Position numbers and translations under genes: made by a program. From Flavobacteriales bacterium (GTDB taxonomy: Bacteria; Bacteroidota; Bacteroidia; Flavobacteriales_F; PHOS-HE28), in NCBI GenBank assembly GCA_031371785.1, contig JANMKC010000018.1, positions 4,266 to 68,265 of the forward strand: a stretch of 64,000 bases of DNA. The letters run 5' to 3'. Under the pieces are notes generated by a model. That model was not told the origin of the DNA and did no database searches. It worked only from the letters and a program-made list of their open reading frames with translations. This document shows, one piece after another, positions 5,909-55,999 of the stretch (the first letter of the stretch is position 1; each line of letters begins with the position of its first letter).

Positions 5909-8900
5909 CGCATGATCGTGACGTGGCCCATCTGGTTCTGCTCGAACCCTTCGGTGCCGTCCCGCTTCTCGATGAACTTGTAGCCCATCCGCCATACATA
6001 CACATCGTTGGGCGCTTCGGCACCGTTCACCTTCCCATCCCAACCCAGCGCAGGGTTGTCGGTATGGAAGATGACCGCGCCCCAGCGATCGAATACGTTG
6101 ATCTCGAACTGGCCGATGCTCTTTCCGACAACGTACCACACGTCGTTGATGCCGTCACCATTCGGTGTGAATGTGTTAGGCACATAAATGCTCGGCGGAC
6201 AGAACTCGTTGACCACCGCTGAATCCTGCTGGCTGCAATCGAACTGGTTGGTGATGCTGACATAGTACCAACCGTATGCTCCCGCAAGGATCACTTGCGT
6301 GTTCTCACCGGTGCTCCAATCGTAGTCGCTGCCATTGTTGCCCCCGCTGATCACCACGTAGTGCGGCTCTTCATCCAGACAGGTGAAGTACGCATGTGTG
6401 CTGAGACGTGAAGGTCGTGGATTGAACGTGGCGAAGAGGCTGTCCGCGCCAGTACAGAAACCGTTGTTCACCTGCACACTGTACGTTCCGGTATGCGCGA
6501 CGGAAATGCCTTGGGTATGCTCGCCGGTGCTCCAACTGAAAGCAGCACCGGGATTCCCGGCGTCGATGTCAAGGATGTCCCCTTGGCACAATACGGTATC
6601 GCGTCCGAGGTCCACCAACGGATAGCCAACGAGGGTTATGACCGCATCAAAACTGCTGCTGCAATGAGCGCTGTTGGTAACAACCACCGTGTATGTACCT
6701 GATGCATTGGCCAGGATCTGCTGCGTCGCCGCATTCGTATTCCACAGGTAGGTGCAACCCGCGTTGCCCGCGTCGAGCGTTACGGGTTGATCGATGCAGG
6801 AGGTGTGGTCGGCAAGCACATCCAGGGGAGAAGCGATCACCGCCAGCGTGATGGAATCACTGGCCGAACATCCGCCATTGCTGGCTTGCACGCTGTATGT
6901 GCCGCCGGTGGTCGCACTGATCGATTGGGTGTGCGCGCCGGTATTCCATGAATAACTGAGGCCGGGCACGCCTGCATCGAGCAGCAGTGACTGGCCTTGG
7001 CAAAGCGTGGTGTCCGGGCCGAGATCAAGGACGAGTACGGGCAGAAGCAGCACGTTCGCATCGAAGGTGGTGCTGCATTGTTGTGGTGTAGTGACGGTGA
7101 CACCATAGGTTCCGCTCTCCTGGACGATGATGCTCTGCGACATCGCTCCTGTGCTCCACAAGTAGGTGCAACCGGCATTGCCCGCATCCAGCGTCGGTGG
7201 TGCACTGACGCAGGTGGTCACATCCTGCAACACATCGATCGGCATCGCATTGAAGGCCACATGCACGGAGTCGGCACGATGACATCCTTGTGCGCTCGTC
7301 GCCGTCACACTGTAGGTGTTCGTCTGCGCCACGGTGATCTGTTGCGTGTTCTCGCTGGTGCTCCATAGCACGCCATTGCCGGGGCTGTTGGCGTCGAGCA
7401 CGAACGAATTCGCGCCGCACAGCGACGTATCAGGACCCAGCTCAAGGGCTGGCAGTGGGTGGATCGTGACGAAATAACTCTTCACCGCTTGGCAGCCCTG
7501 CTGATCGGTGATGGTGCAGATGTAGTTGCCCGATGTGGAGACCACGATGGTCTGCGACGTTTCATTGGTGTTCCAGTCATAGCTCGAACCGGGGAATTCG
7601 GCATCGAGGACGAGGCTTTGATCCGCGCAAGCGGAAAGGGTGATCGGAGTGATCATCGTGTCGAACGCATCGTTCACGCTCACCGAATCGCTCACGCCGC
7701 AGCCGAACGCATCGGTCACGGACACATGGTAGGTGGCTGTGGTATCGAAGAGGATCGTCGGGGACTGGATGTTCCCGGCGTTGAGCAAAGCGGCATCCGT
7801 CCACGTGATCGTCGGCGAGGGCACGTTGTTGATCACGTTCAACTGGAAGCCGTTCGTGTTGCAAAGGGTCTGGTCGTTACCGGCATCGATGGTATAGGCC
7901 GGGCTCACATCGATCGTGATCGCATCGCTGAGCGAGCAGCCGCTGGCGGTTTCGGTGGCGGTAGCGGTATAGGTCGTGTTCGCGGCAGGTGTCGCTGTGG
8001 TGTTCGGTGCGGTAAGGCTGCTGAGCGTGCTGTTGTTCGGTGTCCAAACGAGGCTGTATGGCGAACCACCGATCACGGTGGCTGTGAGCTGGCTGTGTTC
8101 GCCTTGGCAGAGATGCGGGTCGGTCGCGGCGACATCGATGCTTTGCAGCTGTCCCACGGTGATCGTCACTTGTGCATTGTCAGTGCAACCATGGTCCGTT
8201 GTGGCGTTCACCGTGTAAGTGGTGGTGGCCGCAGGTGTCGCGATGGGGTTGGCGATGGCCGCATTGTTCAGGCTGCCGTTGTTCGGGGTCCATGCATAGG
8301 TGACCCCGGTTCCCGAAGTCGGTGTGGCCTGCAATTGCACAGGTGTTCCTGCGGTGCAGATGGTGCTGTTCCCGCCCGTTACCACATCGAAGGCCGGAGC
8401 GACATTGATCGCGATCGAAGCGCTGAACTGGCAACCGCTCGCGTTCGTGGCGACTGCCGTGTAGGTCGTATTGCTCAACGGGGTTGCCAACGGCGTCGCC
8501 GATGTGCTGTTGTTCAACCCTGTTGTTGGCGACCAAGAGAAAGAGATCCCCGTATTGTCATAACGCGTGATCATCACGTTGTCGAGCGCCCAGTTGTCGG
8601 TGCCCGCGCCGGAGTTGTTCAGTTGCGTCCATCGGAAGCGGGTGCTCGTGGTCTGCGCGGCGGAAGGCACAGCCACGGTCACGTTGGTCCAGTTGGGAAA
8701 GGCCGCTTCGTTGAGCGTGGTGATCGGCGACCACGCCACACCGTCCGGACTGTACTCGATAAGCACATCGTCCCCCGGCTCGGCATCATCGCATGGCGGA
8801 GCGCCTGCCGCGATCCGCAGGCCGAAATGCAGGAACGCACCAGTGCTCATGTTCAAGGGACCTGTCAGCGCGCGACGCGTTCCGGCACCATCGAAGCGCA

Positions 8901-11047: not shown

Positions 11048-12643
11048 TCAGCGATCCTTCACGACCCAGTCCACCACTACCTCCCACCCGGCGCGCACGT
11101 TCACTTGGTCCGCTTGCCGGAAAACGCGTTCGGGCTGGCGGTGCGCTCGCAAGGATCCTGTGGACCACCGACCATCATCATTGTTGTCCGCGATGAGTTT
11201 GAGTGTGTAAACCCCAGCGGTCGTTCCGGGCCGTTCGAAGCGGTGCGGCAACGAGGTGAACCGATCCGAGAACACCACGCCTCCTTGGGCGTTGATCAGT
11301 TGAAGGATGAAAGGCCCCTGGACCACTGTCGAGCTATCAACGGAAAGGTCCACTTTCAGATCACCGACCTGCGCGGCGGCTTGTGCGCCGAGGGCGATAC
11401 GCAGTGTGTCGTTGCCGCTTCCATAAATGTCTTGGATCGCACCGGGCAGCAGTTCGAGGGCGGCGCTGTGGCCTTCCGGCAGCTTGGCGCGCAACAGCAA
11501 TTTGCGAGGCATCAGGGTGTCGATCACCAGGTCGAAAGGAAGGGTCATTGAATCGCTCCGTAAGGTGATCCGTTCAGGATGTATCCGTGCGATGGGCCGC
11601 GTGGCAATAAGCAACTGATCACCGCTCGCGGAAATGCCCCCGCTCTTCGCATCCACATAGAACGGCATCTTCCGCAGGACCCGGTATGTGAGCGTGTCGA
11701 TCACCCCGCTGCTGTCCGAAACGGCGAAGTGCTGGTCGGCGAGCAGGGTGGTATCGGAAGGCCACAGCAGCACCGTGTCGCGTGTCGCGTTCCATTCGGG
11801 CCACCAAGTGAGCGAGCCGCCAGTGCGGTCGAGCGCGCGGAGATCGAGCCGTTCCTCATATCGTGCGAGCACTGCCCGACATCCGCGATCAGGTTGCACG
11901 ATGGCCTCGATCACTTGCTGCGTCGGAGCCGGTTCACGGAACATCCGAAGCGCCTGCGGTAGGCTGTCGCGCGGATCGATCACATCATCAATGAAGGCGA
12001 TGTCCTCGTTCGGCAGGTCGTAGCGGTAGTTCGCGTTCTGGTCGCGCAACGCATGCAAGCGATAGTGGCCGCCGCGCAAATGCCGCAGTTCGAAATGGCC
12101 AGCCTTGTCTGTGCGAGTGAAATAGGCAGGGCGTCCTGCGGTGAAGCCCAGCGGGTCGGTATCCTCGTGCAGGACCACGAGCACGCTCGCTTCGGGTTCC
12201 GCTGTGAACGCATCGCTCACGGAACCGGTCACGCGCAGGCTATCGAGCACGTCACCCGTGGACATCACATAGCTCAGCCCGGAAGCCGCGTTGCCTTCAG
12301 TAAGGTCTACCACCGCTTCGCCAATATTGAAGGTGTAGGTGGTGTTGGCACGCAGTGGCGCTTTCAATGTGATCACCACATCGCGGCCACCGCTCACGAG
12401 CACATCCGGTACGTGGTCCAGCGGGGGTGAAACGAGCAGGCGCTCACGTATGCGGTCGAGCTTCACGCGTTCGTTGAAACGCAGCACGATGCGATCACCT
12501 GTGAAGCGCACGGTCCTGTCCGGTGGATCAGCACTGAGCAGTATGGGAGCTGTGATGTCCTTCGCTCCGCCTTCCGGTTCGCGCACCTGTGCGCAGGCGG
12601 CCAACAGGCAAATACAGAGGACCGTGGCGGCCTTTCGCGTCAT
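11048..12643 (-). CDS. lipoprotein, probably with Ig-like domains (hypothetical)
   Basis: start MTRKAATVLCICLLAAC is a lipobox; the ATG overlaps the stop of the upstream GAF gene (ATGA). Confidence 0.55.
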   Translation of the reverse strand: MTRKAATVLCICLLAACAQVREPEGGAKDITAPILLSADPPDRTVRFTGDRIVLRFNERVKLDRIRERLLVSPPLDHVPDVLVSGGRDVVITLKAPLRANTTYTFNIGEAVVDLTEGNAASGLSYVMSTGDVLDSLRVTGSVSDAFTAEPEASVLVVLHEDTDPLGFTAGRPAYFTRTDKAGHFELRHLRGGHYRLHALRDQNANYRYDLPNEDIAFIDDVIDPRDSLPQALRMFREPAPTQQVIEAIVQPDRGCRAVLARYEERLDLRALDRTGGSLTWWPEWNATRDTVLLWPSDTTLLADQHFAVSDSSGVIDTLTYRVLRKMPFYVDAKSGGISASGDQLLIATRPIARIHPERITLRSDSMTLPFDLVIDTLMPRKLLLRAKLPEGHSAALELLPGAIQDIYGSGNDTLRIALGAQAAAQVGDLKVDLSVDSSTVVQGPFILQLINAQGGVVFSDRFTSLPHRFERPGTTAGVYTLKLIADNNDDGRWSTGSLRAHRQPERVFRQADQVNVRAGWEVVVDWVVKDR

Positions 12644-13128
12644 TCGAACAAGGGCTCCAGCAGGTCGCACAGGCGTTGGAGGGCATGCGCGTCCACATCG
12701 CTGAAATCATTGGGCGTGATGCTGTCGATATCGAGCACGGCGGCAATACGGCCATTGCTGTCGCGCACGGGCACCACGATCTCGCTGCGGGTCCGCGCGC
12801 TGCACGCGATGTGCCCGGGGAACTGGTCCACGTCTGGCACCACCATCACCTTCTCTTCCGCCCAAGCGGTGCCACAAACGCCTTTGCCATGCGCGATGCG
12901 GCTGCACGCCACCGGCCCTTGGAAGGGCCCCAGGACCAATTCGGCACCAAGCACGCGATAGAAGCCGACCCAGTGCCAATTGAACGCTTCGCGCAAGGCC
13001 GCGCTCATGTTCGCCATCGCGGCAATGAGGTCGCGCTCTTCCTCCAATAGCGCCATTACCTGCGGCGCAAGGGCTGAATAGATCGTTACGCGATCACCCG
13101 TGGAGGGAAGGATCAACTGCTCGGTCAT
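12640..13128 (-). CDS. GAF domain protein (free methionine-R-sulfoxide reductase-like)
   Basis: PFQGPVACSRIAHGKGVCG...VVPDVDQFPGHIACSARTRSEIVVP matches the fRMsr/YebR family. Confidence 0.8.
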   Translation of the reverse strand: MTEQLILPSTGDRVTIYSALAPQVMALLEEERDLIAAMANMSAALREAFNWHWVGFYRVLGAELVLGPFQGPVACSRIAHGKGVCGTAWAEEKVMVVPDVDQFPGHIACSARTRSEIVVPVRDSNGRIAAVLDIDSITPNDFSDVDAHALQRLCDLLEPLFE

Positions 13129-13177
13129 GGTTCTTCAACGCTGGATGTTCCGGCGACGGGGCTGCGAAAGTACCGGC

Positions 13178-13924
13178 TCACGCGCAAGCGCAGGTGAACA
13201 CGCTGAGCTTGATGCCCGGCACCGCGGACAAGGCCATCGCGCATGCTTCGATCGTTGCGCCGGTGGTGATCACGTCGTCCACGAGAAGCACATGCGCGTT
13301 CCGCAATGCATCCGGATCGGCAACGTGGAACGCCTCCTTCACATTGCTCCATCGTTCCAAGCGGCCGCGTTTGGTCTGCGTCCGGGTACTCACCACACGC
13401 AGCAGTTCATCGCCGAGGTTCTTCAACGGCCATACCTCGCGCATGCCGTCCACCAGCACTTGTGCTTGATTGAAACCGCGCTGGTGCAGCTTGCGCGGAT
13501 GCAGTGGCACAGCGAGGGCCGTATCCACATCAGCGAAGCGGCGCGAGGACATCGTTTCGCGGGCCATGCGTCGGCCGAGTTCAAGGCCCACCTCGCGATC
13601 GCCCTTGTACTTCAGCCGGTGGAGCATGTGCTGTACCATGCCGTCGCGCGCGAATTGCAACATGGCGCTCGCGGCCATGAGCGGGAGTTTGCCCCAGAAC
13701 AACTGCTCCACCTTGTTGCGCGCATCGTCGTGGAAACGCGTGAGCGGCAGATCCTCCGCACAACGCAGGCAGATACTCTCCTCGAAGCGCATCAAGGCAC
13801 CGTCGCAGGCCGCGCATCGCCGGGGCAGAAAGAGGCCAACGAAATCGTAGAGTGCGTTATGTGAGGGCTGTTCCACGGGTTCAATACTTTGTTGAAAACG
13901 GCGGTGGGGCCGAAAAGTGCCCAT
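13178..13924 (-). CDS. comF: ComF family protein (phosphoribosyltransferase domain)
   Basis: N-terminal zinc-finger-like CAACDG...CLRC; C-terminal PRTase motif VLLVDDVITTGATI; the exact start is uncertain. Confidence 0.75.
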   Translation of the reverse strand: MGTFRPHRRFQQSIEPVEQPSHNALYDFVGLFLPRRCAACDGALMRFEESICLRCAEDLPLTRFHDDARNKVEQLFWGKLPLMAASAMLQFARDGMVQHMLHRLKYKGDREVGLELGRRMARETMSSRRFADVDTALAVPLHPRKLHQRGFNQAQVLVDGMREVWPLKNLGDELLRVVSTRTQTKRGRLERWSNVKEAFHVADPDALRNAHVLLVDDVITTGATIEACAMALSAVPGIKLSVFTCACA

Positions 13925-13980
13925 CAGCGCCCAAGGTAACTTCGCCGCGCCGGTACCGCAGGGGTGCCGGAACATTCCCT

Positions 13981-34778: not shown

Positions 34779-34780
34779 TG

Positions 34781-43162: not shown

Positions 43163-43470
43163 ACCCCCTCTAACTCCCCCGGTGGGGGAGGACCTGAAAA
43201 CCGATCAAGACAACTCCGAGAGAAAGTAGACACGGTTCCAACATGGTCGGCCCCTTCCCCACCGGGGAAGGTTTGGGATGGGGTCGCATTGAACACTTGC
43301 CCGTTGATGATCTGCTGAAGACGACCGACGAAAACGAAGAGACCGAAGACCACCTTTCCGATCCCGCTCGCAACCACTTTGTCAGTTCGAGCGAAGTCGA
43401 GAACCCACATAAACCACTACCCCGAAGGCGAAGCGGGAGCCGAGCCGAAGGACCAAAACCAACACGAAGC

Positions 43471-46035
43471 ATGTATGTAGTCAAACGCGACGGACGCCGG
43501 GAGGCGGTGAAATTCGACAAGATCACTGCCCGTGTGAAGAAGCTCTGCTATGGGCTCGATCCCATGGTGGATGCCACACAGGTCACACTGAAAGTGATCG
43601 ACGGCATCTTCGACGGTGTCACCACCACGGAGCTCGATAACCTCACGGCGGAAGTCGCGGCCACCATGACGGTGAAGCACCCGGACTACGCACAGCTCGC
43701 CAGCCGCATCGCGGTGAGCAACCTGCACAAGAACACCAAGAAGTCCTTCAGCGAGGTGATGAAGGACCTCTACGAATACCTCGACCCGAAGACCGGTGCG
43801 CGCGCCAGCCTTCTCGCTGATGATGTCTATACCATCATCAAGGAGAACGCGGATCATCTGGACAGCTCCATCATCTACGACCGCGACTTCACCTACGACT
43901 ACTTCGGTTTCAAGACGCTCGAGCGCAGTTATCTCTTGCGTCTGCACGGCAAAGTGGCCGAGCGTCCGCAGCACATGCTGATGCGCGTGGCCATCGGCAT
44001 CCACAAGAACGATCTCGACAGCGCGATCGAGACCTACAACCAATTGAGCGAAGGCTGGTACACGCACGCCACGCCCACGCTCTTCAACGCGGGTTCGCCG
44101 AAGCCGCAGATGAGCAGCTGCTTCCTCTTGCAGTTGAAGGACGACAGCATCAGCGGCATCTACGACACGCTGAAGCAATGCACGCAGATCAGCCAGAGCG
44201 CCGGCGGCATCGGCCTCAGCATCCACAACCTTAGGGCGAAGGGCAGCTACATCAAAGGCACCAACGGTACCAGCAACGGCATCGTACCGATGTTGCGCGT
44301 GTTCAACGACACCGCGCGTTACGTCGATCAAGGCGGTGGAAAGCGCAAGGGCTCGTTCGCCATCTACATGGAGCCGTGGCATGCGGACATCGAAGATTTC
44401 CTGGAGCTGAAGAAGAACCACGGCAAGGAGGAAATGCGCGCGCGCGACCTCTTCTATGCGCTGTGGATCCCGGACCTCTTCATGAAGCGCGTGGAGCAGA
44501 ACGCCGACTGGACACTGATGTGCCCGAACGAGTGCCCCGGCCTCGCGGACACCTGGGGAGAGAAGTTCGAAGAGCTGTACGAGAAGTACGAGCAGGAAGG
44601 ACGCGGTCGCAAGACGATGAAGGCGCAGGACCTCTGGTTCCACGTGCTGGAAAGCCAGATCGAAACGGGCACGCCCTATATCCTCTTCAAGGACGCTGCC
44701 AACCGCAAGAGCAACCAGCAGAACCTCGGCACCATCAAGAGCAGCAACCTCTGCACGGAGATCATCGAGTACACCAGCGCGGATGAAGTGGCGGTGTGCA
44801 ACCTCGGTTCCATCGCCTTGCCGAAGTTAGTGGAGCGTGGATCCTTCAATCACAACAAGCTCTTCGAAGTGACGCTGCAGTTGACGAAGAACCTCAACCG
44901 CGTCATCGACGAGAATTTCTATCCGATACCCGAAGCGCGCCGCAGCAACATGCGCCACCGCCCCATCGGCATCGGCGTGCAGGGCCTGGCGGATGCTTTC
45001 ATCCTGATGCGCTACGCCTTCGACAGCGTGGAAGCGAAGGTGCTGAACCGCGAGATCTTCGAAACCATCTACTACGCCGCGCTCACCGCGAGCAAGGATC
45101 TCGCGAAAGAACACGGCGCGTACGAGACCTATGAGGGGAGCCCGATGAGCAAGGGCGTGCTGCAGTTCGACATGTGGGAAGGCGTGAAGCCATCCGATCG
45201 CTGGGAGTGGGACATCCTGCGCGAGGAGATCAAGAAGTACGGCATACGCAACAGTCTGCTGCTCGCCCCGATGCCCACGGCGAGCACCGCGCAGATACTC
45301 GGCAACAACGAGTGCTTCGAGCCTTACACCAGCAACCTCTACACGCGGCGCGTGCTGAGCGGCGAGTTCATCGTGGTGAACAAGTACCTGCTGCGCGACC
45401 TGGTGAAGCTCGGCCTGTGGAGCGAGGAGATCAAGAACAAGATCATCGCCGCGAACGGCAGCGTCGCACATATCCCGGAGATCCCGCAGAACCTGAAGGA
45501 CCTCTACAAGACCGCCTGGGAGATCAGCCAGAAGACCATCATCGACATGGCGGCGGACCGCGGCGCGTACATCTGCCAGAGCCAGAGCCTGAACATCTTC
45601 ATGGAGAACGTGAACTTCGCCAAACTCACCAGCATGCACTTCTACAGCTGGAAGGCCGGCCTGAAGACGGGCATGTACTACCTGCGCACCAAGGCCGCCA
45701 CCGACGCCATCAAGTTCACGCTGGACAAGGCAACCATACAGAAATCAGCCGCTGCGGAAGTGGCCTCGAAGGCCCACGCGAACGGTGTTGCTGTGGGTAC
45801 AACCGTGATGCTCGACCCCGTGATGAGTGGACCCGTGATCGCTTCACGCAATGGCCTGTACGCAACTGCGGAGCAGCACGAAACCGAAACCCTGGTGGAA
45901 GAAGCGGGCGAACGCAACGGACCTGTGGAGAACGGCATGGCTGCGCACCGTGTGGCTGCTATGAGCGCAGATGCGCAAGCGCAAATTGCTTGCTCGCTGG
46001 ATGATCCCGATAGTTGTGAGATGTGTAGCGGGTAG
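43471..46035 (+). CDS. nrdA: ribonucleoside-diphosphate reductase subunit alpha (class Ia)
   Basis: ATP-cone N-terminus [18 protein letters not shown]; active-site ...SNLCTEI...; C-terminal cysteine tail ...CEMCSG. Confidence 0.95.
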
Positions 46036-46080
46036 AGGAATCGATTGAGGGCATTGTGAAAAAATGAGCCAACAGCTATC

Positions 46081-46515
46081 ATGCTTGGCGGAGTATTTGA
46101 CAGTTGGAAATTGAAGGTCTACTATACGCAGGCGTTGAGCGAGTATTCCGTTCTTCGACGAAGAGGATTTTCAGACTTGGATGCAAAGATTCACCTACTG
46201 AAGCTGGATCTTGAATTGAACAGCAGCATCGGAATTAGCTCGGCCATCAAGCAACGAGTTGAGGAACTAGATGTGCTGGGCGAAATCCAATTCATGGTCT
46301 GGTTCAATGCCTCACTGAAAACGAAGTGCCCTCGCATACCCATAGTCAAAAACATTAATGAGTTCGTTCGTGAAAGAAGTGTGTTGAGCGACATTGCGTT
46401 TCACTCTGGTGATTGGTGGGTGATCAAAGCGGACCTCAAGGATGACAGCCTTCCATCAGAAAGGGAATTCAATGATCTCGGCAAGGAACTAGCTGAACGA
46501 TTCCTCCTTGCGTAG
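46081..46515 (+). CDS. hypothetical protein A (low-GC island gene)
   Basis: 144-aa ORF at ~42% GC; its stop TAG is immediately followed by the ATG of the next gene. Confidence 0.5.
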   Translation: MLGGVFDSWKLKVYYTQALSEYSVLRRRGFSDLDAKIHLLKLDLELNSSIGISSAIKQRVEELDVLGEIQFMVWFNASLKTKCPRIPIVKNINEFVRERSVLSDIAFHSGDWWVIKADLKDDSLPSEREFNDLGKELAERFLLA

Positions 46516-47046
46516 ATGAATACCGCACCGCTCTCCTATGTATCGAAATTCGACTACTATGCTGTTCGTGACTCCCTTGGCCAAGAGGCGAGTCGGTCCG
46601 GTTTGAACACGGACATCATCAAGTCGATCCACGAAGTGTTCAAAGAGATTGAAGATGTTCACTATCTCAATGCGGTCCGTACCGACGCGACCCGATTGCG
46701 CGCAAGTCTGTTCCATTTGAAAGGTATGCGCTTGCTGCTGGATTTGAAAGCCATGGACTGCCCTGAGCAAATTTTGTCTCGGACTTCCGATCTCTTCATT
46801 GACCACTTTCTCAAGCTCACGGTTGCGTCTGTGAACACGGCGACGACAGCCAACCAACAGCTAAAGAACTTCACTGCCCTGGTGTCTATTCAGGCTGGGA
46901 TGAACGGAATAGAAGAATTGCTTCAATTGCGCCCGTCTGTTGAAGCAGCTTTGGCCATGGCGGCGATCGATCAAGACCTAAGGAAGCTTTTCATCGTTGT
47001 TCACCCGGTTGCACAACAGGAGATAGCGAATAGAGGTAAGCAATAA
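46516..47046 (+). CDS. hypothetical protein B (low-GC island gene); alpha-helical with an Rx4H HEPN-like motif
   Basis: 176 aa; RASLFH (Rx4H) is embedded in a helical context. Confidence 0.5.
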   Translation: MNTAPLSYVSKFDYYAVRDSLGQEASRSGLNTDIIKSIHEVFKEIEDVHYLNAVRTDATRLRASLFHLKGMRLLLDLKAMDCPEQILSRTSDLFIDHFLKLTVASVNTATTANQQLKNFTALVSIQAGMNGIEELLQLRPSVEAALAMAAIDQDLRKLFIVVHPVAQQEIANRGKQ

Positions 47047-47110
47047 CAGCATCCATCATAGACAAGCATGCACGCTCGTGTGCTTGCTGAACGACGCAAT
47101 GAGAGGGGGC

Positions 47111-47803
47111 CTATGTCGTGAAGGAGAGGTTTGTCTTGTCCTCCACAATTAACCTGTAGCCGGGAGTTCTCCCTCGTCGCTCAATCTCAAGCTTCCCGGT
47201 CGCTTTGACTGTTCCGCTATACTGGCCAGACACGAACTTTTTGACGAAGGCCAGCGTCATGCCGGACATGTCCAGTACTTCAACTGGAACGCTACAGCCC
47301 AAGAAGGTGAAGCCATTGGAAAGCTCCATGATCGCCCCCTGCTCCTTGATCTGGCCGGTAAGTGTCACGACTTGATTCTCGTAGCGCCCGGACTGAACAT
47401 CCGCACTTGTCAATGCAGAAGCATTGATCTCAATTGGCTTAGGCTTTGATTCACCTCCCCACATGCTCATGGGCCTTTTGCCAGCCGCCTGTCTCAATTG
47501 ATCTCGAACCTTATCAACACGATAAGAAAGAATCAGGCTTCGGTACTGAATGGCGACCAAGATATGCTGGCATGCCTGGATGTCGCCGCTCTTCTCCAAA
47601 TCCACCAAAAGAACCGCCAGTTCCTGAACCCGATGCGCATCGATCAACTTGCGCATTTCGTTCGAGAGCATCTGATAGCTCGCCTTGTTCTCGCGCTGTC
47701 GGAATGAATTGAAGCGCCAGAGCACAATGACGACTATGATCAGGACTATCCAGAGCATGCGAGTCGGAAGTGGTTGGAACAAGTGTAGCGAACTTTCCTC
47801 CAT
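47111..47803 (-). CDS. membrane-anchored protein with a C-terminal OB-fold (tRNA_anti-like) domain
   Basis: N-terminal TM helix MLWIVLIIVVIVLW; C-terminus ...YENQVVTLTGQI...GQYSGTVKATGKL... is OB-fold-like. Confidence 0.55.
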   Translation of the reverse strand: MEESSLHLFQPLPTRMLWIVLIIVVIVLWRFNSFRQRENKASYQMLSNEMRKLIDAHRVQELAVLLVDLEKSGDIQACQHILVAIQYRSLILSYRVDKVRDQLRQAAGKRPMSMWGGESKPKPIEINASALTSADVQSGRYENQVVTLTGQIKEQGAIMELSNGFTFLGCSVPVEVLDMSGMTLAFVKKFVSGQYSGTVKATGKLEIERRGRTPGYRLIVEDKTNLSFTT

Positions 47804-48139
47804 GCCATGGCTCTCCCAGCGGACACCTGTTCTATGCCGCGACTCGATCAACGACAGTGAATACGGGCAAAAACGAAGAGCATGAAATCCTAACTTCGAA
47901 GCAAACTTGCGGAAGCATGCGTAGCCGGAGTGTTGAACGCGAAGTTTGCGAAGACAAGCTGTGGGAAGTTCAGAAGGCATTGATCAGGGTCAACGGCATT
48001 CTTGACCAACCAAGCTTGGAAAACAGAGCGGTGTACATGAGCCAAAAGAAGGGCTTGGAAGAACAACGCGAAACATTGTCTGTGGAGATCGATCGACTCA
48101 CCGTCGGCATGTGACAATCTCGAAGTACCCGACCATAGC

Positions 48140-48421
48140 ATGGGGCGCGCACACAAGCTTTCCTGTCCGTCCTGCGGCTATGGTGAACGCTTCATCAGTG
48201 ATGGCCGTACGCGAGGAATGATTGCCGAACTACAGTCCATCCACTGCTTGGACTGCGCACGACTGTACAATGCGAATGTTGGCTCTTTCGAACCTCGGAA
48301 GACGTACCCCATCACGTGTCCAAAGAGCATTGTCCACATAGTTGTTGAGTGGCAACATCCGGGTCCTTGCCCCAAGTGCGGCACCACGCTTACTGACAGC
48401 GGAGTCATTTTGTGGGACTAG
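48140..48421 (+). CDS. small zinc-ribbon protein
   Basis: CPSCG ... CLDC ... CPKCG cysteine pairs. Confidence 0.5.
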   Translation: MGRAHKLSCPSCGYGERFISDGRTRGMIAELQSIHCLDCARLYNANVGSFEPRKTYPITCPKSIVHIVVEWQHPGPCPKCGTTLTDSGVILWD

Positions 48422-48484
48422 ACCCCATCTGCGCGAGTCTGCCAGACTTGTCCAGTTGGCCCCCAATCTCGCGCGAGTGTTAGG

Positions 48485-48549
48485 CCTCTGGCGGTGAACA
48501 AGTCTCGCGAACAGATGGCCAGAGGCAAAGAACGACCTTGCCGATCGGC
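48485..48549. repeat. 65-nt direct repeat H, copy 1, with an internal 9-bp-stem hairpin
   Basis: 63 of 65 nt identical to 49863-49927; stem gcctctggc (48484-48492) / gccagaggc (48518-48526), loop 25 nt. Confidence 0.85.
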
Positions 48550-48575
48550 TTGAGCAAGGCGAGCGACGGGATGGA

Positions 48576-48848
48576 TCAATACACCTCGTCGTGCGTTCCG
48601 ATGTCGATCAGCAGCACCTTGCTCTGGCCCTTGAGGAAAACGAATACCACGCGGCAGTCGTGGTCCACGCTGAACGCCCAGCAATGGCTGAGCTTCCCGG
48701 TGAGCTTGTGCGTCATAAGCCCGGCGGCGAAAGGGTCCGATGCGAAGAGCTGTAGTGCGTCCCAGAACCGTTGCTTCAGCAACGCATCAGGGCTGATGCG
48801 CTTATTATAGGAACGCTTGAAGCCTGCATCCCAAACCAGCTCGATCAT
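48576..48848 (-). CDS. type II toxin-antitoxin system RelE/YafQ-family toxin
   Basis: ...KLTGKLSHCWAFSVDHDCRVVFVFL...LLIDIGTHDEVY. Confidence 0.8.
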   Translation of the reverse strand: MIELVWDAGFKRSYNKRISPDALLKQRFWDALQLFASDPFAAGLMTHKLTGKLSHCWAFSVDHDCRVVFVFLKGQSKVLLIDIGTHDEVY

Positions 48849-49057
48849 GCTTCCAGGTCCTTGCGCAGGTCGGAGACCTTGCCCTTGCGCACCTTGCGCG
48901 CCTTGAGGTTCCGAGCGGCCATCTTCACGCGGATAACCAGCGCCTCCCGCGCGGCCTCCGCATAAGCCTTACGAATGATGCCAGCGGCGTACTCCTTCTC
49001 CTCCATGGGCAGGGCATCGAACTGCTCGATCACCGTATTGATGTCCTGGGTTCTCAT
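48845..49057 (-). CDS. antitoxin (RelB/DinJ-like) paired with the RelE-family toxin
   Basis: 70-aa gene overlapping the toxin start by 4 nt; TATCTTTG promoter-like motif ~20 nt upstream. Confidence 0.6.
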   Translation of the reverse strand: MRTQDINTVIEQFDALPMEEKEYAAGIIRKAYAEAAREALVIRVKMAARNLKARKVRKGKVSDLRKDLEA

Positions 49058-49090
49058 GGAGTTGGAAGTATGCTTCAAAGATAGGAGGCC

Positions 49091-49182
49091 GATACCCCCG
49101 ATCTCCCCCCCGAACACACGCTCGGGTGCGGCGCATCTCCGCCGCTCGGCTTATCCGCAAGCAACAAAGTCTGCCGATCGGC
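49091..49182. promoter_or_regulatory. ~93-nt repeat U, copy A (shared upstream element of the antitoxin genes)
   Basis: ~87% identical to 49754-49846; lies 34 nt upstream of the antitoxin ATG, next to a TAnnTTTG-like motif. Confidence 0.6.
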
Positions 49183-49200
49183 GGGATCGAAGTTGCCGCA

Positions 49201-49500
49201 CTATTTCTTCCGCTTGAACTTCTTCTTGGGGTCTTGGCTGGTGTGGAAGATGCGGTACACGACGATGGCATCGTCGAACACTTCGTAGATGATCACGAAC
49301 GGAAAGCCGTCCAACGGTGCTTGCCGGAAACGCTTGTACACGACCTGGAACCCTTTCGGGAACTGCACGATGTACTTCGCACAGTTCTCCACTTCAGCAA
49401 GGAAACGTTCATCAAGCCCAATCTGTCGTTGCCGATACCACCACATGGACTCCGCGATGTCCGTGTCGGCATCATCGCGGTAGATGAGCTTGCGGTTCAT
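49201..49500 (-). CDS. type II toxin-antitoxin system ParE/RelE-family toxin
   Basis: ...ESMWWYRQRQ...LDERFLAEVE...FPFVIIYEVFDDAIVVYRIFHTSQDP. Confidence 0.8.
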   Translation of the reverse strand: MNRKLIYRDDADTDIAESMWWYRQRQIGLDERFLAEVENCAKYIVQFPKGFQVVYKRFRQAPLDGFPFVIIYEVFDDAIVVYRIFHTSQDPKKKFKRKK

Positions 49501-49727
49501 CCACGCGCTGCTTTGCGTGCGCGTCGTCTCATTTGTTCCGGCGTGTAGCTCTTCCCTTCGCCGCGCAGGTAGCGTTTGCGCGCTTCATCCAATTCGGCTT
49601 TTTGCTCATCGCTCAGTTCGAAGCGGGTGCCGTGGTTCATGATCATATCCACGGAGCGCAACTGCGATTCGCTTTCGGTATCGAGGATCTGCTTGGCCAG
49701 CGCGACTTTCAGTTCAGTGAGCTTCAT
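49497..49727 (-). CDS. antitoxin (putative addiction-module component) paired with the ParE-family toxin
   Basis: MKLTELKVALAKQILDTESESQLRSV...SDEQKAELDEARKRY; 4-nt overlap with the toxin; TAGTTTTG motif upstream. Confidence 0.65.
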   Translation of the reverse strand: MKLTELKVALAKQILDTESESQLRSVDMIMNHGTRFELSDEQKAELDEARKRYLRGEGKSYTPEQMRRRARKAARG

Positions 49728-49753
49728 GCGGGTCGTTGTTGCCCCAAAACTAC

Positions 49754-49846
49754 GATGCCCCGATCGCACCACCTCCGAACCCACGCTCGGGTGCGGTGCA
49801 TCTCCGCCACTCGGCTTGACCGCGAGCAACAACGTCTGCCGCTCGG
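49754..49846. promoter_or_regulatory. ~93-nt repeat U, copy B
   Basis: see 49091-49182. Confidence 0.6.
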
Positions 49847-49862
49847 TGTGCGGTGCGTTCCG

Positions 49863-49927
49863 CCTCTGGCGGTCAACAAGTCTCACGAACAGATGGCCAG
49901 AGGCAAAGAACGACCTTGCCGATCGGC
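49863..49927. repeat. 65-nt direct repeat H, copy 2
   Basis: see 48485-48549; stem 49862-49870 / 49896-49904. Confidence 0.85.
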
Positions 49928-49971
49928 CTCATCACAGATAGGAAAAGCCCAGCGGCAGGATGGAGAAGAGT

Positions 49972-50173
49972 TCAGAAATGGATCGATAGCACAGCAGCGA
50001 GCCCTTCGCGGATCGGTTCCATCACCGTTGCGCTCACAACGCCAACTCGTTCGGTAAAGCGGTGCTCGCTGATCGAGCGCACTTGGAAACAGTCCGCCGC
50101 TGAAACCTTGCTGAGTTTGTTCTTCGCGTCCGGCGTGATGCGCACTTTCCAAGGAACTTGGGCATAGTGCATC
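49972..50173 (-). CDS. small hypothetical protein (67 aa)
   Basis: high-GC3 ORF MHYAQVPWKVRITPDAKNKLSKVS...; family not recognised. Confidence 0.3.
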
Positions 50174-50327
50174 GCAGGTTCAGGCAGGTTCGATCCCTTG
50201 TTTTCATCCCCGGTAGTGAGCGACACGTTCGACCTGCACTTATGAACTTGCGATAGAGGCAAAACTCTTTCTAGAATGCATGAGTCAGGAACAGGGATTG
50301 CTGCGGTAGCTGCATAACCTGAACACC

Positions 50328-50477
50328 ATGAGCCAGAAGAAAAGAACAGTCGCACCCCACGCCAAGCCTCCCGGCCTCGGTCGCAGCGCCATTACCGGCC
50401 GCTTCATGAGCGTGGCCGCTGCCAAGGCGCATAAGAAGACTGCCATCGTGATGGGCGGGAGGAGCGGAAAGAAATAG
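50328..50477 (+). CDS. small basic hypothetical protein (49 aa)
   Basis: MSQKKRTVAPHAKPPGLGRSAITGRFMSVAAAKAHKKTAIVMGGRSGKK; below the ORF-track length cut-off; speculative. Confidence 0.25.
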   Translation: MSQKKRTVAPHAKPPGLGRSAITGRFMSVAAAKAHKKTAIVMGGRSGKK

Positions 50478-50898
50478 GTCTACTTGCTCCGCCTGCCTTC
50501 CGGCTCGTCCGGTTTTGCCCACCGCATGTATGGGCGCTTGCTTTGTGGGCGATCTTCTACCGCGCCCTGCTCAGAGCAGACCGACACATTGGGTCCCGCC
50601 TCCAACTCGAACAGCCAGCTGAGCGCGCTGCACAAGTATTCTGCCTGAGCCGCTGTAAGGTCGGGTTGTGCAAGGCTTCCATCAGTTCCGCATGGCAACG
50701 TTCCGATCCCGCAGGAATCTCGATCTGTTCTACAGTCGGTAATTCTTGGAGGGATACAGGCGAGGTCATGGCAAAGGGATCTATCGATGCTTGATGCCGG
50801 ATCGGGCACCGATCCCCCGGATATTCACAGATGGTCTTCTTGCACTACCCGTGCGGATCCGAGATGCCGGTTCCGGAGGATCTTCTCGGAAGGAGGAC

Positions 50899-51240
50899 TT
50901 ACCTCAGCAGCAGGATGAGCAGCAGGATGATGATCACCGTGCCAGCCGAGATGTAGATCACCTCACCACCACGGTTGTAGGTGGCCGCTTCACGCTTCAG
51001 GTCTCTTACCTCGGTACGCAACGCCTTCCGTTCTTCATGTGTAAGCGTTGAGCGATCAATGGTGCTGATCGTCTCCAAGCGATCGACGATCTGGAGCACG
51101 CATTGTTGATCAGCGCTGTTCAACTTCTGGAAGTTCTCCTGGTTGATGCGTATGGGACTCGAAGGCTCACTGGCCAATGTCGTATTGGCGAAGAGGCCGA
51201 AGCCGAAGCTGACCAACAGGAGGTGTTTCATGTTCTTCAT
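50899..51240 (-). CDS. small secreted/membrane protein (signal peptide plus C-terminal TM helix)
   Basis: MKNMKHLLLVSFGFGLFANTTLA signal; C-terminal VIYISAGTVIIILLLILLL. Confidence 0.5.
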   Translation of the reverse strand: MKNMKHLLLVSFGFGLFANTTLASEPSSPIRINQENFQKLNSADQQCVLQIVDRLETISTIDRSTLTHEERKALRTEVRDLKREAATYNRGGEVIYISAGTVIIILLLILLLR

Positions 51241-51550
51241 GATCATGGGTTTGGCGCATCGCAGCCGAAGAAGCATGCCGCAAGGCTGCGCGGGCCTCGA
51301 ACGGTGCAATATCAGGCACGACCGCGCGAACGCCGGAAGAAAGAAGCTTGGTGTTGCGCGTAGCATATGGGGATATTCCTCCACAACATCTGCGGTGAAA
51401 AGTCCTCCGTATCCACAAATGCGGCACATGTTCGTACGGTCCCTGCTAGGGCATGCTTCCCATCGAGCAGGGATCGCTCATCCGGGCCAGAGGCTTTCGG
51501 ATCACCGATATTCGCCTGTTCCGCTTCTCTTTGCAGCACGCACAACCGAT

Positions 51551-52231
51551 ATGGCCATGACCAACGAACCTCGCACGATCGTGAAAAAAGCGAACAGGAT
51601 CGAGAACTACGAGAAGATCGAATGCAGCTTGATACTGATCGACCTGAGCGGTTTCACGCAGTTGCTCTATCACGCCAGCTACTCGGAGAAGATCATGCGC
51701 ACGGTGGTGCTGGCGATGAAGAAGATGTTCCAGGACGCGATGCTCTCGGCTTCAGCCGCGCGGGACATCCAGATCATCAATACGACAGGCGACGGCTTCA
51801 TCGCGATCGCCATCGGCGACACACCATCGCGTACGGCGGTGAAATACGTGGAGCAGGTGCGCATCCATTTCGTGCAGTACGTGAGTTCGATCGTCAACTC
51901 CGTCCCGTTCCGGCAGAAGGTGGACCTGCGGATCGCGCTGCACCACGGGAGCGTGTACCGGATGGAGATCGCCGATCCTTCGGGCGCTGCCTATCCCCTC
52001 TACCTTGGCGACGACATCAACCTGATCGCGCGCGTGATCAATGGCCAGGTGGCGCGCCGCTATGGGGTGGCCATCACCAAGCACTTCCTCCGGCGACTGA
52101 TGTTGCAGGACAAGAGCACGACCCCGGACGAGGTGATCGTGGACCGCAATCGCTATCCGGAGCAGATCGACATCTACCGGCTGCCGGACCGCATTCCCGA
52201 ATACGTTCCGGCGAAGAAGCGCAAAGCATAG
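51551..52231 (+). CDS. standalone class III nucleotidyl cyclase domain protein (adenylate/guanylate-cyclase-like catalytic domain only)
   Basis: metal-binding Asp motifs LILIDLSGFT and INTTGDGFIAIAIGD; LRIALHHGSVY; transition-state motif GDDINLIARV (N...R); the canonical K/D (ATP) or E/C (GTP) specificity positions are occupied by T/N and L. Confidence 0.7.
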   Translation: MAMTNEPRTIVKKANRIENYEKIECSLILIDLSGFTQLLYHASYSEKIMRTVVLAMKKMFQDAMLSASAARDIQIINTTGDGFIAIAIGDTPSRTAVKYVEQVRIHFVQYVSSIVNSVPFRQKVDLRIALHHGSVYRMEIADPSGAAYPLYLGDDINLIARVINGQVARRYGVAITKHFLRRLMLQDKSTTPDEVIVDRNRYPEQIDIYRLPDRIPEYVPAKKRKA

Positions 52232-52265
52232 GATCCATGCCTTGCGTGACATGCGCCGGCCGCCG

Positions 52266-52541
52266 TCACTTCCTCAGCACGCGCCAGATCCACCGCGCCA
52301 GGAAAAAGAGCAACACACCGCTCAGAAGCGCACCAAGAAGAACTCCGGCGACGTATCCCCCTTGATAGGCCGCGTTGCCATCGCTCGTTCGGGAGAAGGC
52401 GACCATCGCACCATGGACGACCGCCCATGCGAGCAGCAAGCAAGGCCCGATGCAGACAACGGCGAGGAATTTCCTGAGCACGCGCAAAGATGTCGGCACG
52501 ATCGATCCCCTTGACCAGCGCCGTAAACGTCGGTCGAGCAT
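52266..52541 (-). CDS. small two-TM membrane protein (hypothetical)
   Basis: 91 aa; two hydrophobic helices. Confidence 0.45.
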   Translation of the reverse strand: MLDRRLRRWSRGSIVPTSLRVLRKFLAVVCIGPCLLLAWAVVHGAMVAFSRTSDGNAAYQGGYVAGVLLGALLSGVLLFFLARWIWRVLRK

Positions 52542-52691
52542 CGGCCCCCGCTTTCCCTATGCTCACGCAGGGTCTCAGCAAGAGCGGTGTGCGTTCCAAC
52601 AGATCACTGGACCCTGCGGGGTCTTGGTGGCTCAGGGTCCCGAATTGGAGACCCTGAGCGAGGGAAGTTCATCATCGTTGGAACGATCAGA

Positions 52692-53114
52692 CTACGACGT
52701 GAGCGATGCACCCGTATCGAGCATCGACCCAGCAATTGTCCGCTGAGGAATGCGAATGCTCGTGATGGTTGGTCGGCCGATATCGAAGGCAACGGTCTTG
52801 CGCCAGAGAAAGCTGCGTTGCTTGATCCCGTGGATCTCCGACCACGGGATCAGCAAAGGCGGATGACCGATGGAGAACAGGAACAATACCGAAAGGTGAA
52901 GTCCGAACCCGTCATGTCCGACGAACAGGATGTTCCGGTAAGAAACAATGCCGACGTGTCCGGAACACCAACTCGTTTCCATCGGGGATACTGATGGTGC
53001 ACGGAAATTCTTCGCGAGACCCTTCCACCCACTGAACCAGGCCAGGAAATGGAACAGCAGGAGGACGAAGCCTGCGACCAAGGGCACAGCGAGCCAGCCG
53101 CTCATCGCATCCAT
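52692..53114 (-). CDS. membrane protein (hypothetical)
   Basis: 140 aa; N-terminal TM helices WLAVPLVAGFVLLLFHFLAWF. Confidence 0.45.
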   Translation of the reverse strand: MDAMSGWLAVPLVAGFVLLLFHFLAWFSGWKGLAKNFRAPSVSPMETSWCSGHVGIVSYRNILFVGHDGFGLHLSVLFLFSIGHPPLLIPWSEIHGIKQRSFLWRKTVAFDIGRPTITSIRIPQRTIAGSMLDTGASLTS

Positions 53115-53125
53115 CCGATCCGCAT

Positions 53126-54340
53126 CTACTTGAACGCCGCCAGCCCCGTCACCTCCTGCCCGGTGATGAGCAGGTGGATGTCGTGCGTGCCTTCGTAGGT
53201 GACCACGCTTTCGAGGTTCATCATGTGGCGCATGATCGGATACTCGTTGGTGATGCCCATGCCGCCGAGGATCTGTCGGGCTTCGCGGGCCACGGTAAGG
53301 GCGAGCATCACGTTGTTGCGCTTGGCCATGCTGATCTGCGCGGTGGTGGCGCGGCCTTCATTGCGCAGGGTGCCGAGGCGCCACGTGAGCAGTTGCGCCT
53401 TGGTGATCTCGGTGATCATCTCGGCGAGCTTCTTCTGCGTGAGCTGGAACTGGCCGATGGGCTTGTCGAACTGGATGCGCTGCTTCGCATAGCGTAACGC
53501 CGTGTCGTAGCATTCCATCGCCACGCCGAGCGTACCCCACGCGATGCCGTAGCGCGCGCTGTCCAAGCAGCCAAGCGGTGCACCGAGACCGCTCTTGTTC
53601 GGCAGCAGGTTGGTCTTCGGGACCTTCACGTTGTCGAACACGAGTTCACCGGTGGGTGATGCGCGCAGTGAAAGTTTGCCATGTGTCGTCGGTGTGGTGA
53701 AGCCCTCCATGCCGCGCTCCACGATGAGGCCATGGATGCGGCCGCTCTCGTCCTTCGCCCACACCACCGCGATGTCCGCGATGGGGCTGTTGCTGATCCA
53801 CATCTTCGCGCCGTTCAGCAAGTAGTGGTCGCCCTTGTCGATGAAGTGGGTGGTCATGCCACCGGGGTTGCTGCCGTGGTCCGGCTCGGTGAGACCGAAG
53901 CAGCCGATCTTCTTGCCCGCGGCGAGTTGTGGCAGCCACTTTTTCTTCTGCTCCTCGTTGCCGTATTTCCAGATCGGGTACATCACCAATGATCCCTGCA
54001 CGCTGCACAGGGAGCGCAGTCCGCTGTCGCAACGTTCGATCTCCTGCATGATCACGCCATAGCTGATCTGGTCCAGGCCCATGCCGCCGTATTCGATGGG
54101 CACCATCGGCCCGAACGCACCTATCTCCGCCAGACCGGGAATGATCTCCGGATGGAATTCCGCCTTCTCGAAGCTCTCTTCGATGATCGGCTTCAGGTAC
54201 TTGCTTACATGCTTGCGCGCCGTTTCACGGATCAACTTCTGCTCCTCGGTGAGCAGTTCATCCACCAGGTAGTGGTCGTGGAACTGGAAGAGGTCGGTAG
54301 CGGTGGACTTCTTTGCCGGAGTGGTCGCGGTGGAATTCAT
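53126..54340 (-). CDS. acyl-CoA dehydrogenase, glutaryl-CoA dehydrogenase-like
   Basis: ...CFGLTEPDHGSNPGGM...; C-terminal YEGTHDIH...; full-length ACAD architecture. Confidence 0.9.
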   Translation of the reverse strand: MNSTATTPAKKSTATDLFQFHDHYLVDELLTEEQKLIRETARKHVSKYLKPIIEESFEKAEFHPEIIPGLAEIGAFGPMVPIEYGGMGLDQISYGVIMQEIERCDSGLRSLCSVQGSLVMYPIWKYGNEEQKKKWLPQLAAGKKIGCFGLTEPDHGSNPGGMTTHFIDKGDHYLLNGAKMWISNSPIADIAVVWAKDESGRIHGLIVERGMEGFTTPTTHGKLSLRASPTGELVFDNVKVPKTNLLPNKSGLGAPLGCLDSARYGIAWGTLGVAMECYDTALRYAKQRIQFDKPIGQFQLTQKKLAEMITEITKAQLLTWRLGTLRNEGRATTAQISMAKRNNVMLALTVAREARQILGGMGITNEYPIMRHMMNLESVVTYEGTHDIHLLITGQEVTGLAAFK

Positions 54341-55902: not shown

Positions 55903-55999
55903 CTGCGCTCGACCTGACAAATACGGCTGCGCTCGACCTGACAAATACGGCTCCGCTCGACTTGACAAATACGGCTCCGCTCGGCTTGACAGATGATCG
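55903..55999. repeat. tandem 24-bp direct repeats (about 4 units), each containing a (T/C)TGACA motif
   Basis: ctgcgctcgacctgacaaatacgg twice exactly, then ctccgctcgacttgacaaatacgg, then a degenerate fourth unit. Confidence 0.85.

Follow-up and report, generated by a model that had tools for sequence, protein, structure and literature searches.

Introduction

Hotspots of defence and accessory genes, lying between conserved core genes, have been described for E. coli and other pangenomes. In type II toxin-antitoxin (TA) modules, toxins of the RelE/YafQ type cleave mRNA on the ribosome and ParE poisons gyrase, each being neutralised by the antitoxin encoded upstream; TA cassettes are also typical of chromosomal integrons. 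Effectors of the cyclic-nucleotide defence systems Pycsar and Pucsar are CNBD-TIR or CNBD-3TM proteins, and RAZR is an immunity protein consisting of a zinc finger and a DUF4145/HEPN RNase (PMC13017515). Here we compare with these systems the DNA just downstream of nrdA in an uncultured Flavobacteriales metagenome-assembled genome (MAG). The stretch analysed, called the window below, comprises 64 kb of contig JANMKC010000018.1, and the interval studied is the ~7 kb between the nrdA stop at 46,035 and the stop, at 53,126, of a gene for a glutaryl-CoA dehydrogenase-type protein (GCDH). An earlier note had read this interval as a single composite island.

Our data make it likely that the nrdA-GCDH interval is a mosaic variable region, a recurrent hotspot of insertion and rearrangement just 3′ of nrdA, and not one functional system. 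It consists of three parts that are compositionally and historically distinct. The first (46,036–~48,450) would be horizontally acquired low-GC DNA with a gene pair, A-B, as its core; the second (48,479–50,230) a small array of putative type II TA modules; and the third (~50,300–53,114) a set of genes of native composition, presumably moved here by rearrangement. The probable ancestral filling of the interval, hemA-hemC(-hemB), would have been displaced. The variable, non-syntenic character of the proposed island is thereby retained; its unity as one coherent island or system is not, given three distinct parts and no mobility genes.

Results and Discussion

Content of related nrdA loci

Two conserved genes bound the interval:

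43,471–46,035, plus strand: nrdA, class Ia ribonucleotide reductase large subunit (Pfam Ribonuc_red_lgC, E 2e-221), the left boundary
53,126–54,340, minus strand: glutaryl-CoA dehydrogenase-type acyl-CoA dehydrogenase with three Acyl-CoA_dh domains, the right boundary

GCDH opens the GCDH-DUF4271-hemD block of the window. The best relatives of the window's nrdA, among 185,579 species genomes, were wastewater and environmental MAGs at 80–87% amino-acid identity, and 80 related nrdA loci were fetched for synteny analysis. The order nrdB-nrdA was kept in 75 of them. The content of the window's interval, on the other hand, was found in none of the 80, save for a homologue of the membrane gene at 50,899–51,240 in locus L008. 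Synteny across relatives was the check proposed for the island, and whole-segment conservation was not what it revealed. The suggestion that the content is largely not housekeeping also held up, the interval being variable and made up mostly of TA modules, a remnant and orphan genes.

In two loci (L012 and L016), GCDH (minus strand), DUF4271, hemD and further genes follow 3–4 kb after nrdA and are collinear with the right flank of the window. Between nrdA and GCDH both carry hemA-hemC, with hemB in addition in L012; they belong to 11 more distant Flavobacteriales in which hemA-hemC follows nrdA. Since none of hemA, hemC and hemB occurs anywhere in the 64-kb window, ancestral housekeeping content appears to have been lost from the interval.

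The closest relatives (L001, L002, L003, L005, L007 and L011) have no GCDH within 10 kb of nrdA, and their GC content drops by 10–15 points in the first 1–4 kb past the gene. The low-GC genes found there are unrelated to those of the window and to each other; all matches between the relatives' loci lie more than 3 kb downstream of nrdA. The first post-nrdA gene of L001 (12,650–13,282) encodes a zinc-finger and DUF4145 (HEPN) protein of RAZR-like architecture. In L003 the cargo comprises a NACHT/STAND NTPase together with a PIN_8 protein (6,503–8,470 and 8,596–9,903), and in L011 a methyltransferase and a DUF7689 protein (12,643–13,956). In L005 (12,826–16,320) orphans are accompanied by open reading frames (ORFs) that resemble IS630-family transposases as judged by eye alone, without a library scan, while L002 and L007 carry orphan genes. 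Because each of the closest relatives carries a different low-GC cargo after nrdA, the hotspot is taken to be recurrent. These results suggest that foreign DNA, some of it of defence type, has repeatedly entered the nrdA 3′ flank across the clade, with no dedicated integrase signature: no copy of the nrdA 3′ end that could serve as a right-hand att site was found in the window or in the closest relatives.

An nrdA terminator hairpin, AAGAGCGGCTCGAAAGGCCGCTCTT, is kept ~25–60 nt past the nrdA stop in L003, L005, L008 and L010. It is missing in the window, in L001, L002 and L011, and in a short metagenomic contig described below (L094); in all of these, foreign DNA begins within ~45 nt of the stop.

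The locus thus resembles the defence hotspots of pangenomes in its conserved flanks (nrdBA on one side, GCDH-DUF4271-hemD on the other) with a filling that differs in every relative, and in its low-GC cargo, with defence-type genes (RAZR-like, STAND NTPase, PIN) in sister species. It differs from them in that the evidence comes from species-level MAGs at 80–87% nrdA identity, not from strains, that rearrangement has also affected the right flank of the closest relatives, and that the window's own copy contains no recognised defence system, none having been found in a PADLOC scan of the interval's ORFs. The L001 protein shares with RAZR an N-terminal CxxC...CxxC region, a C-terminal DUF4145 domain, and an Arg and a His at the eight-residue spacing of R146 and H154 in RAZR. 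The likeness is one of architecture and residue spacing, and the window has no such gene.

Base composition

In 500-nt segments, GC content falls from 0.60 at 45,500 to 0.46 at 46,000, a break that coincides with the nrdA stop. Only 46,001–48,250 and the window's first 500 nt lie below the mean minus 2 standard deviations in the 64 kb, and GC is 0.46–0.52 throughout the atypical stretch (46,036–~48,450). This stretch holds the following genes, given with their GC content at third codon positions (GC3) where noted singly:

46,081–46,515, plus strand: gene A, 144 aa, which opens a conserved module of two genes (GC3 0.54)
46,516–47,046, plus strand: gene B, 176 aa, abutting A and predicted to be all-helical (GC3 0.59)
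47,111–47,803, minus strand: ORFan membrane protein, 230 aa (215 aa by NCBI), with one N-terminal transmembrane (TM) helix (GC3 0.64)
47,917–48,114, plus strand: small ORF of 65 aa from the ORF list, a doubtful gene with no family match
48,140–48,421, plus strand: small double CxxC zinc-ribbon protein, 93 aa, marking the end of the low-GC segment (GC3 0.62)

GC3 is 0.54–0.64 in these five ORFs, compared to 0.84–0.88 in nrdB, nrdA, GCDH and hemD. It is intermediate in the TA genes (0.64–0.82), 0.70–0.74 in the small membrane genes further right, and 0.85 in a nucleotide cyclase gene there. Since the GC and GC3 break does not extend over 7 kb, the compositional island measures ~2.4 kb. The abrupt shift that had been noticed at the nrdA boundary is therefore real, but is confined to the first ~2.4 kb instead of covering the whole interval. 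The 230-aa membrane protein had no homologue other than itself and no family match, and all zinc-ribbon matches of the 93-aa ORF were sub-threshold.

The A-B gene pair

The coupling reported for two genes of no recognisable family was borne out: A ends at 46,515 and B starts at 46,516. Among 5.8 billion proteins, B had a single close homologue besides itself, P0046, encoded on the 1.5-kb contig L094. The first 29 nt of this contig encode the C-terminus and stop of an nrdA; a homologue of A (69% identity) lies 41 nt past that stop and is followed by the homologue of B (53% identity). Since the L094 pair directly follows nrdA, A-B occupies the same site in a second, related organism. The ratio of nonsynonymous to synonymous substitution rates (dN/dS) was 0.12 for A and 0.18 for B, from which we conclude that both are real genes.

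An exhaustive HMMER search yielded five more A-like proteins of 139–163 aa (28–36% identity), the A family comprising about seven clusters among 1.8 billion representatives. In both readable contexts (L098 and L099) a diverged B-like gene lies 5–7 nt downstream of the A homologue, and the B-like genes have in common the motifs Y-x-S-K-x-[DN]-Y and F-x-D-H-x-[LM]-K-[LI]-x-V-x-S-V-N. One diverged A-B copy lies on a 65-kb contig from an organism of ~31% GC, 2 kb from a tyrosine integrase gene (Phage_integrase) and an HTH_17 gene. Because the pair recurs in L094, L098 and L099, with one copy beside an integrase, A-B appears to be a small, mobile and conserved two-gene module.

On the 65,266-nt contig of JGI sample 3300075153, the A-B copy shares its block with a tyrosine integrase, two HTH_17 genes, an HSP70-like protein of 730 aa, a LysM protein and a 797-aa protein. 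This block may be an integrative element carrying other conflict genes.

Gene A had no match in Pfam, NCBIfam, PADLOC, PHROGs or the PDB, and gene B no family match in the first four of these; the same four libraries likewise returned nothing for the 230-, 65-, 49-, 113-, 91- and 140-aa ORFs of the interval. No match to A was obtained by tblastn against plasmids and phages or by scanning IMG/VR with the A family. The AF2 model of B (pLDDT 71) has six helices, and a Foldseek search with it against the PDB and BFVD returned nothing significant, only generic helical bundles. Three leads on A were set aside: PADLOC matches to reverse transcriptases were weak (E 4e-4 over 30 residues) and dismissed as noise, the single-sequence AF2 model (pLDDT 45.6) was too poor for use, and the A-family profile hit only de novo TIM barrels in the PDB through a short motif, which we consider spurious.

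We infer that A-B is a small mobile accessory module, possibly one involved in conflict or defence. The interval had been put forward as the most plausible spot in the window for an undescribed system; this can be maintained for A-B (46,081–47,046), not for the region as a whole. Among the genes of the interval, A-B is most plausibly the best candidate, the case being made by conservation, mobility and location. In a stronger version, the low-GC A-B pair, alone or together with the membrane and zinc-ribbon genes next to it, would constitute an undescribed anti-phage or conflict system in a post-nrdA defence hotspot. The RAZR-like, STAND NTPase and PIN-like genes at the same position in sister species speak in its favour, as do the coupling and purifying selection of the pair, the copy that is cargo adjoining an integrase, and the TA modules next door. 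However, the argument for a defence function is one of location: there is no PADLOC match above noise, nor any domain or fold clue, and the family is tiny, with ~seven A clusters among 1.8 billion representatives. Moreover, the membrane and zinc-ribbon genes are not kept with A-B, L094 carrying other DNA after B. We therefore regard the stronger version as unlikely.

Mobility signature of the interval

Alternatively, one genomic island spanning all 7 kb could have entered the 3′ end of nrdA by site-specific integration. In support of this, the nrdA stop forms a sharp junction, the terminator hairpin kept in L003, L005, L008 and L010 is missing in the window, and the content is absent from relatives. 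With respect to variable presence between conserved flanks, the content was absent from the 80 loci and the flanks are common with L012 and L016, which are species-level relatives. On the other side, composition is heterogeneous and atypical over 2.4 kb only: GC and GC3 are atypical in 46,036–~48,450, the TA genes are intermediate and the cyclase is native-like. In addition, no integrase or transposase domain was detected by Pfam in any ORF of 46,036–53,120 or in the flanking genes, nor was an excisionase gene found; there is no tRNA beside the interval (the only tRNA of the window is at 34,780); and a search for repeats of the nrdA 3′ end within 10 kb gave only chance 9–10-mers. No plasmid or phage matched the interval in a blastn search with its full length, and the cyclase and the 113-aa gene beside it have homologues in native contexts of relatives. 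Taken together, these data make the single island very unlikely, and argue for the mosaic proposed above.

The toxin-antitoxin array and its repeats

The second part of the interval contains these features:

48,576–49,057, minus strand: TA cassette 1, with a candidate antitoxin of 70 aa (48,845–49,057) and a RelE/YafQ-like toxin of 90 aa (48,576–48,848), overlapping by 4 nt
49,201–49,727, minus strand: TA cassette 2, with an antitoxin of 76 aa (49,497–49,727) and a ParE toxin of 99 aa (49,201–49,500), overlapping by 4 nt
49,972–50,226 (right end approximate), minus strand: 5′-truncated MazF/PemK remnant (PemK_toxin, E 1.3e-8)
48,479–48,556: repeat D1, copy a, just after the stop of the YafQ-like toxin, with palindrome GCCGATCGGC at 48,540–48,549
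49,107–49,181: repeat D2, copy a, 50 nt upstream of the antitoxin-1 start and 20 nt past the ParE stop, with the palindrome at 49,173–49,182
49,772–49,934: composite repeat that separates TA cassette 2 from the MazF remnant and combines D2 copy b (49,772–49,846) with D1 copy b (49,857–49,934)

The description of two TA cassettes with a repeat architecture proved accurate, with ParE above its family cut-off, the other toxin below, and the D1 and D2 repeats in place. The cassette 2 toxin scored 34.8 bits with ParE_toxin (PF05016; cut-off 23) and matched ParE2 in the PDB (8c26, E 4e-5); its antitoxin resembles TIGR02574/Unstab_antitox, the TIGR02574 score of 20.7 being under the cut-off of 31.9. 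The cassette 1 toxin scored 25.4 bits with YafQ_toxin (cut-off 30; E 1.7e-5) and 22.4 with RelE_StbE (cut-off 27.9; E 1.3e-4), with YoeB at E 0.06 in the PDB, and its candidate antitoxin had no family match. A third TA element had gone unmentioned in the earlier note: the MazF remnant matches PemK profile positions 49–109 of 109, i.e. the C-terminal ~60 residues. No antitoxin ORF adjoins it and the frames upstream have no match; it is a record of past cassette turnover. By family assignment, the RelE/YafQ-like toxin would cleave mRNA and the ParE toxin would act on gyrase, each presumably being neutralised by its antitoxin.

As in known type II modules (ParDE; RelBE, YafQ-DinJ and YoeB; MazEF), each toxin gene of the two cassettes is preceded by a small antitoxin gene that it overlaps by 4 nt, Pfam cut-offs are passed by the ParE and PemK domains, a RelE/YafQ fold family is indicated, and the modules cluster in a variable region. 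The array departs from them in the scores of the RelE/YafQ-like toxin and both antitoxins, which lie under curated cut-offs, and in having MazF as a 5′-truncated remnant without an antitoxin. Flanking repeats of 75–78 nt common to the cassettes are likewise not a standard TA feature.

On the minus strand the order is MazF remnant-D1b-D2b-TA2-D2a-TA1-D1a. The two copies of D1 (78 nt) are 91% identical over 78 nt and 97% over 66 nt, those of D2 (75 nt) 88% identical, and neither repeat has further copies elsewhere in the 64-kb window. D1 homology starts right at the toxin stop codons. D2 ends 45–50 nt upstream of both antitoxin starts and each copy is followed by a TAnnTTTG motif (49,076–49,083 and 49,745–49,752), which fits the -7 promoter box of Bacteroidota. 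The palindrome GCCGATCGGC is present in three exact copies in 64 kb, against 0.23 expected; the third is at 49,918–49,927, and a degenerate fourth lies in D2b (49,837–49,846). Each exact copy lies 19–45 nt past a toxin stop, and the palindrome is common to the otherwise different D1 and D2. Neither repeat was found in the 80 relatives' loci, in JGI metagenome contigs (exact-pattern scans), or in plasmids and phages (blastn of the interval). Rfam gave nothing at the gathering threshold for the window and nothing at E ≤ 1 for the TA array. All contigs retrieved by look-ups of the toxins were short Logan contigs from the same population that break off at the D1 repeats, and they revealed neither other contexts nor signs of circular forms.

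Recombination at D1 and D2 would most likely be the way in which cassettes are gained, lost and stacked in tandem. We infer that recombination between the repeat flanks is the simplest account of the stacking of unrelated TA operons. D1 and D2, with their GCCGATCGGC core, may form an undescribed repeat system through which the cassettes are exchanged, a cassette site that works without an integrase.

The layout also recalls an integron-like cassette array (CALIN), with D1 and D2 as attC-type recombination sites: small co-oriented TA operons, in units of 633 and 664 nt, are each followed by a related repeat with a hairpin and the same palindromic core 19–45 nt after the toxin gene. When the repeats were folded on both minus and plus strands, z-scores were -2.5 to -3.1 for three of the four minus-strand segments and -0.5 for the remaining one, IG1. 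Nevertheless, integrons seem a highly improbable source of this array. The scanned large ORFs of the flanks (annotation from ~34.9 kb onward) contain no integrase domain, there are only two or three cassettes, and the whole of D1 and D2 does not occur between every cassette pair. The repeats also deviate from attC sites in consensus and architecture: they lack the R′′/L′′...L′/R′ layout, their hairpin ends read GTTC...GAAC and not RYYYAAC...GTTRRRY, and a lone GCCTAAC/GTTAGGC match in D1a is not conserved in D1b. Their absence from JGI metagenome contigs and the relatives' loci points the same way, and the layout could as easily have arisen by homologous recombination between duplicated flanks.

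The cyclase and the right-hand genes

The third part of the interval comprises:

50,328–50,477, plus strand: small basic ORF of 49 aa with a coding-type GC3 signal (frame-specific GC) and no family match
50,899–51,240, minus strand: small protein of ~113 aa, secreted or anchored in the membrane, having a signal peptide and a TM helix at its C-terminus; no family match
51,557–52,231, plus strand: stand-alone class III nucleotide cyclase, 224 aa (PF00211, E 2e-9; GC3 0.85)
52,266–52,541, minus strand: small membrane protein, 91 aa, with the same ORF call in Logan contig L088; no family match
52,692–53,114, minus strand: small membrane protein, 140 aa, encoded on the same strand as GCDH and starting 11 nt past the GCDH stop; no family match

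The cyclase family comprises 44 clusters of ~215-aa proteins at 40–69% identity. Its members all retain the two metal-binding Asp residues and the Asn/Arg pair, the canonical adenine-specifying Lys is replaced by Asn or Thr, and there is a family-specific C-terminal motif, DEVILDRNRYPEQIE. In all seven distinct homologue contexts examined (7/7) the order was cyclase-recR-GT2-E2, without small membrane neighbours. The cyclase gene lies directly upstream of recR, followed by genes for a GT2 glycosyltransferase and a 2-oxoacid dehydrogenase E2, in L081–L087, L089 and L090 (mostly at ~8,001–8,648), a linkage thus conserved in Flavobacteriales MAGs. No recR was found in the 64-kb window. The 113-aa protein has a homologue (51% identical) 3.5 kb past nrdA in L008, and contig L088 (97.7% identity) shows the same arrangement of cyclase and membrane genes as the window. 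The right-hand genes thus look native and rearranged, not imported. Judged by its residues, the cyclase is predicted to be catalytically intact; it is a conserved gene of the lineage and probably makes a housekeeping cyclic-nucleotide signal.

Between 50,480 and 50,900 (~420 nt) no gene could be assigned. A coding-type GC3 signal is seen on the minus strand at 50,480–50,620 and then fades, and this stretch may mark another decayed gene.

The cyclase had been described as minimal and provided with membrane partners, and a class III cyclase with small membrane ORFs on both sides is indeed present, but the partnership is not a conserved one, the homologues being found beside recR. A Pycsar/Pucsar-type cyclic-nucleotide defence system made of the cyclase and these membrane proteins, suggested by a small (~220 aa) stand-alone class III enzyme with intact catalytic residues, non-canonical base-specifying positions, adjacent small TM proteins and weak family matches to PycC models (14 of 20 members, best E ~1e-6; window protein E 0.0065), can be dismissed as extremely improbable, since homologues at 64–69% identity occur alone upstream of recR, among glycosyltransferase and E2 genes, a housekeeping context without membrane partners, while the 113-, 91- and 140-aa neighbours have no CNBD, TIR or PycTM match in Pfam or PADLOC that could make them effectors and the GC3 of the cyclase is native. 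The window protein scored E 0.0065–0.021 against a PycC model, a level that general class III cyclases would reach as well.

Points against a mosaic origin

Several points weigh against reading the interval as a mosaic of independently assembled parts. As regards strain-level gain and loss, the closest genomes stand at 87% nrdA amino-acid identity and the order of events is deduced. A functional link between the parts is compatible with the uncharacterised state of A, B, the membrane ORFs and the zinc-ribbon ORF. The naming of the second part as a TA array includes a RelE/YafQ-like toxin and two antitoxins that score under curated family cut-offs. Finally, the window cyclase could be a relocated orthologue or a second copy, both of which fit 64 kb without recR.

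Further observations on the flanking genes

The nrdA ORF reaches 76 codons beyond the conserved MYV(I/V)KRDGR start in the upstream direction, to 43,243 (43,243–43,470). The true start is probably at 43,471, since relatives align only from ~residue 57–77 onward. Directly after the hemD stop there is a tandem repeat (55,906–55,991) of 3.6 copies of a 24-nt unit, CGCTCGACCTGACAAATACGGCTC, with 95% matches.

Implications

Most of the interval is ordinary: besides TA modules it holds one remnant, orphan genes and a signalling enzyme that is conserved. Chromosomal variable regions of this kind, in which TA modules occur with decayed remnants and orphans, are found in most bacterial genomes. Recognition of the apparent defence cyclase as a member of a conserved recR-linked family is a correction that removes the most tempting over-interpretation of the locus. 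What the comparison adds is a mapped nrdA-3′ hotspot in an uncultured clade of wastewater Flavobacteriales, and such hotspots are productive for finding new defence genes. That A-B founds an undescribed two-gene conflict or defence module, travelling between Bacteroidota on integrative elements and landing in the nrdA-3′ hotspot, is a doubtful proposition at present. The pair is nonetheless mobile, under purifying selection and wholly unannotated, and it is small enough for direct testing.

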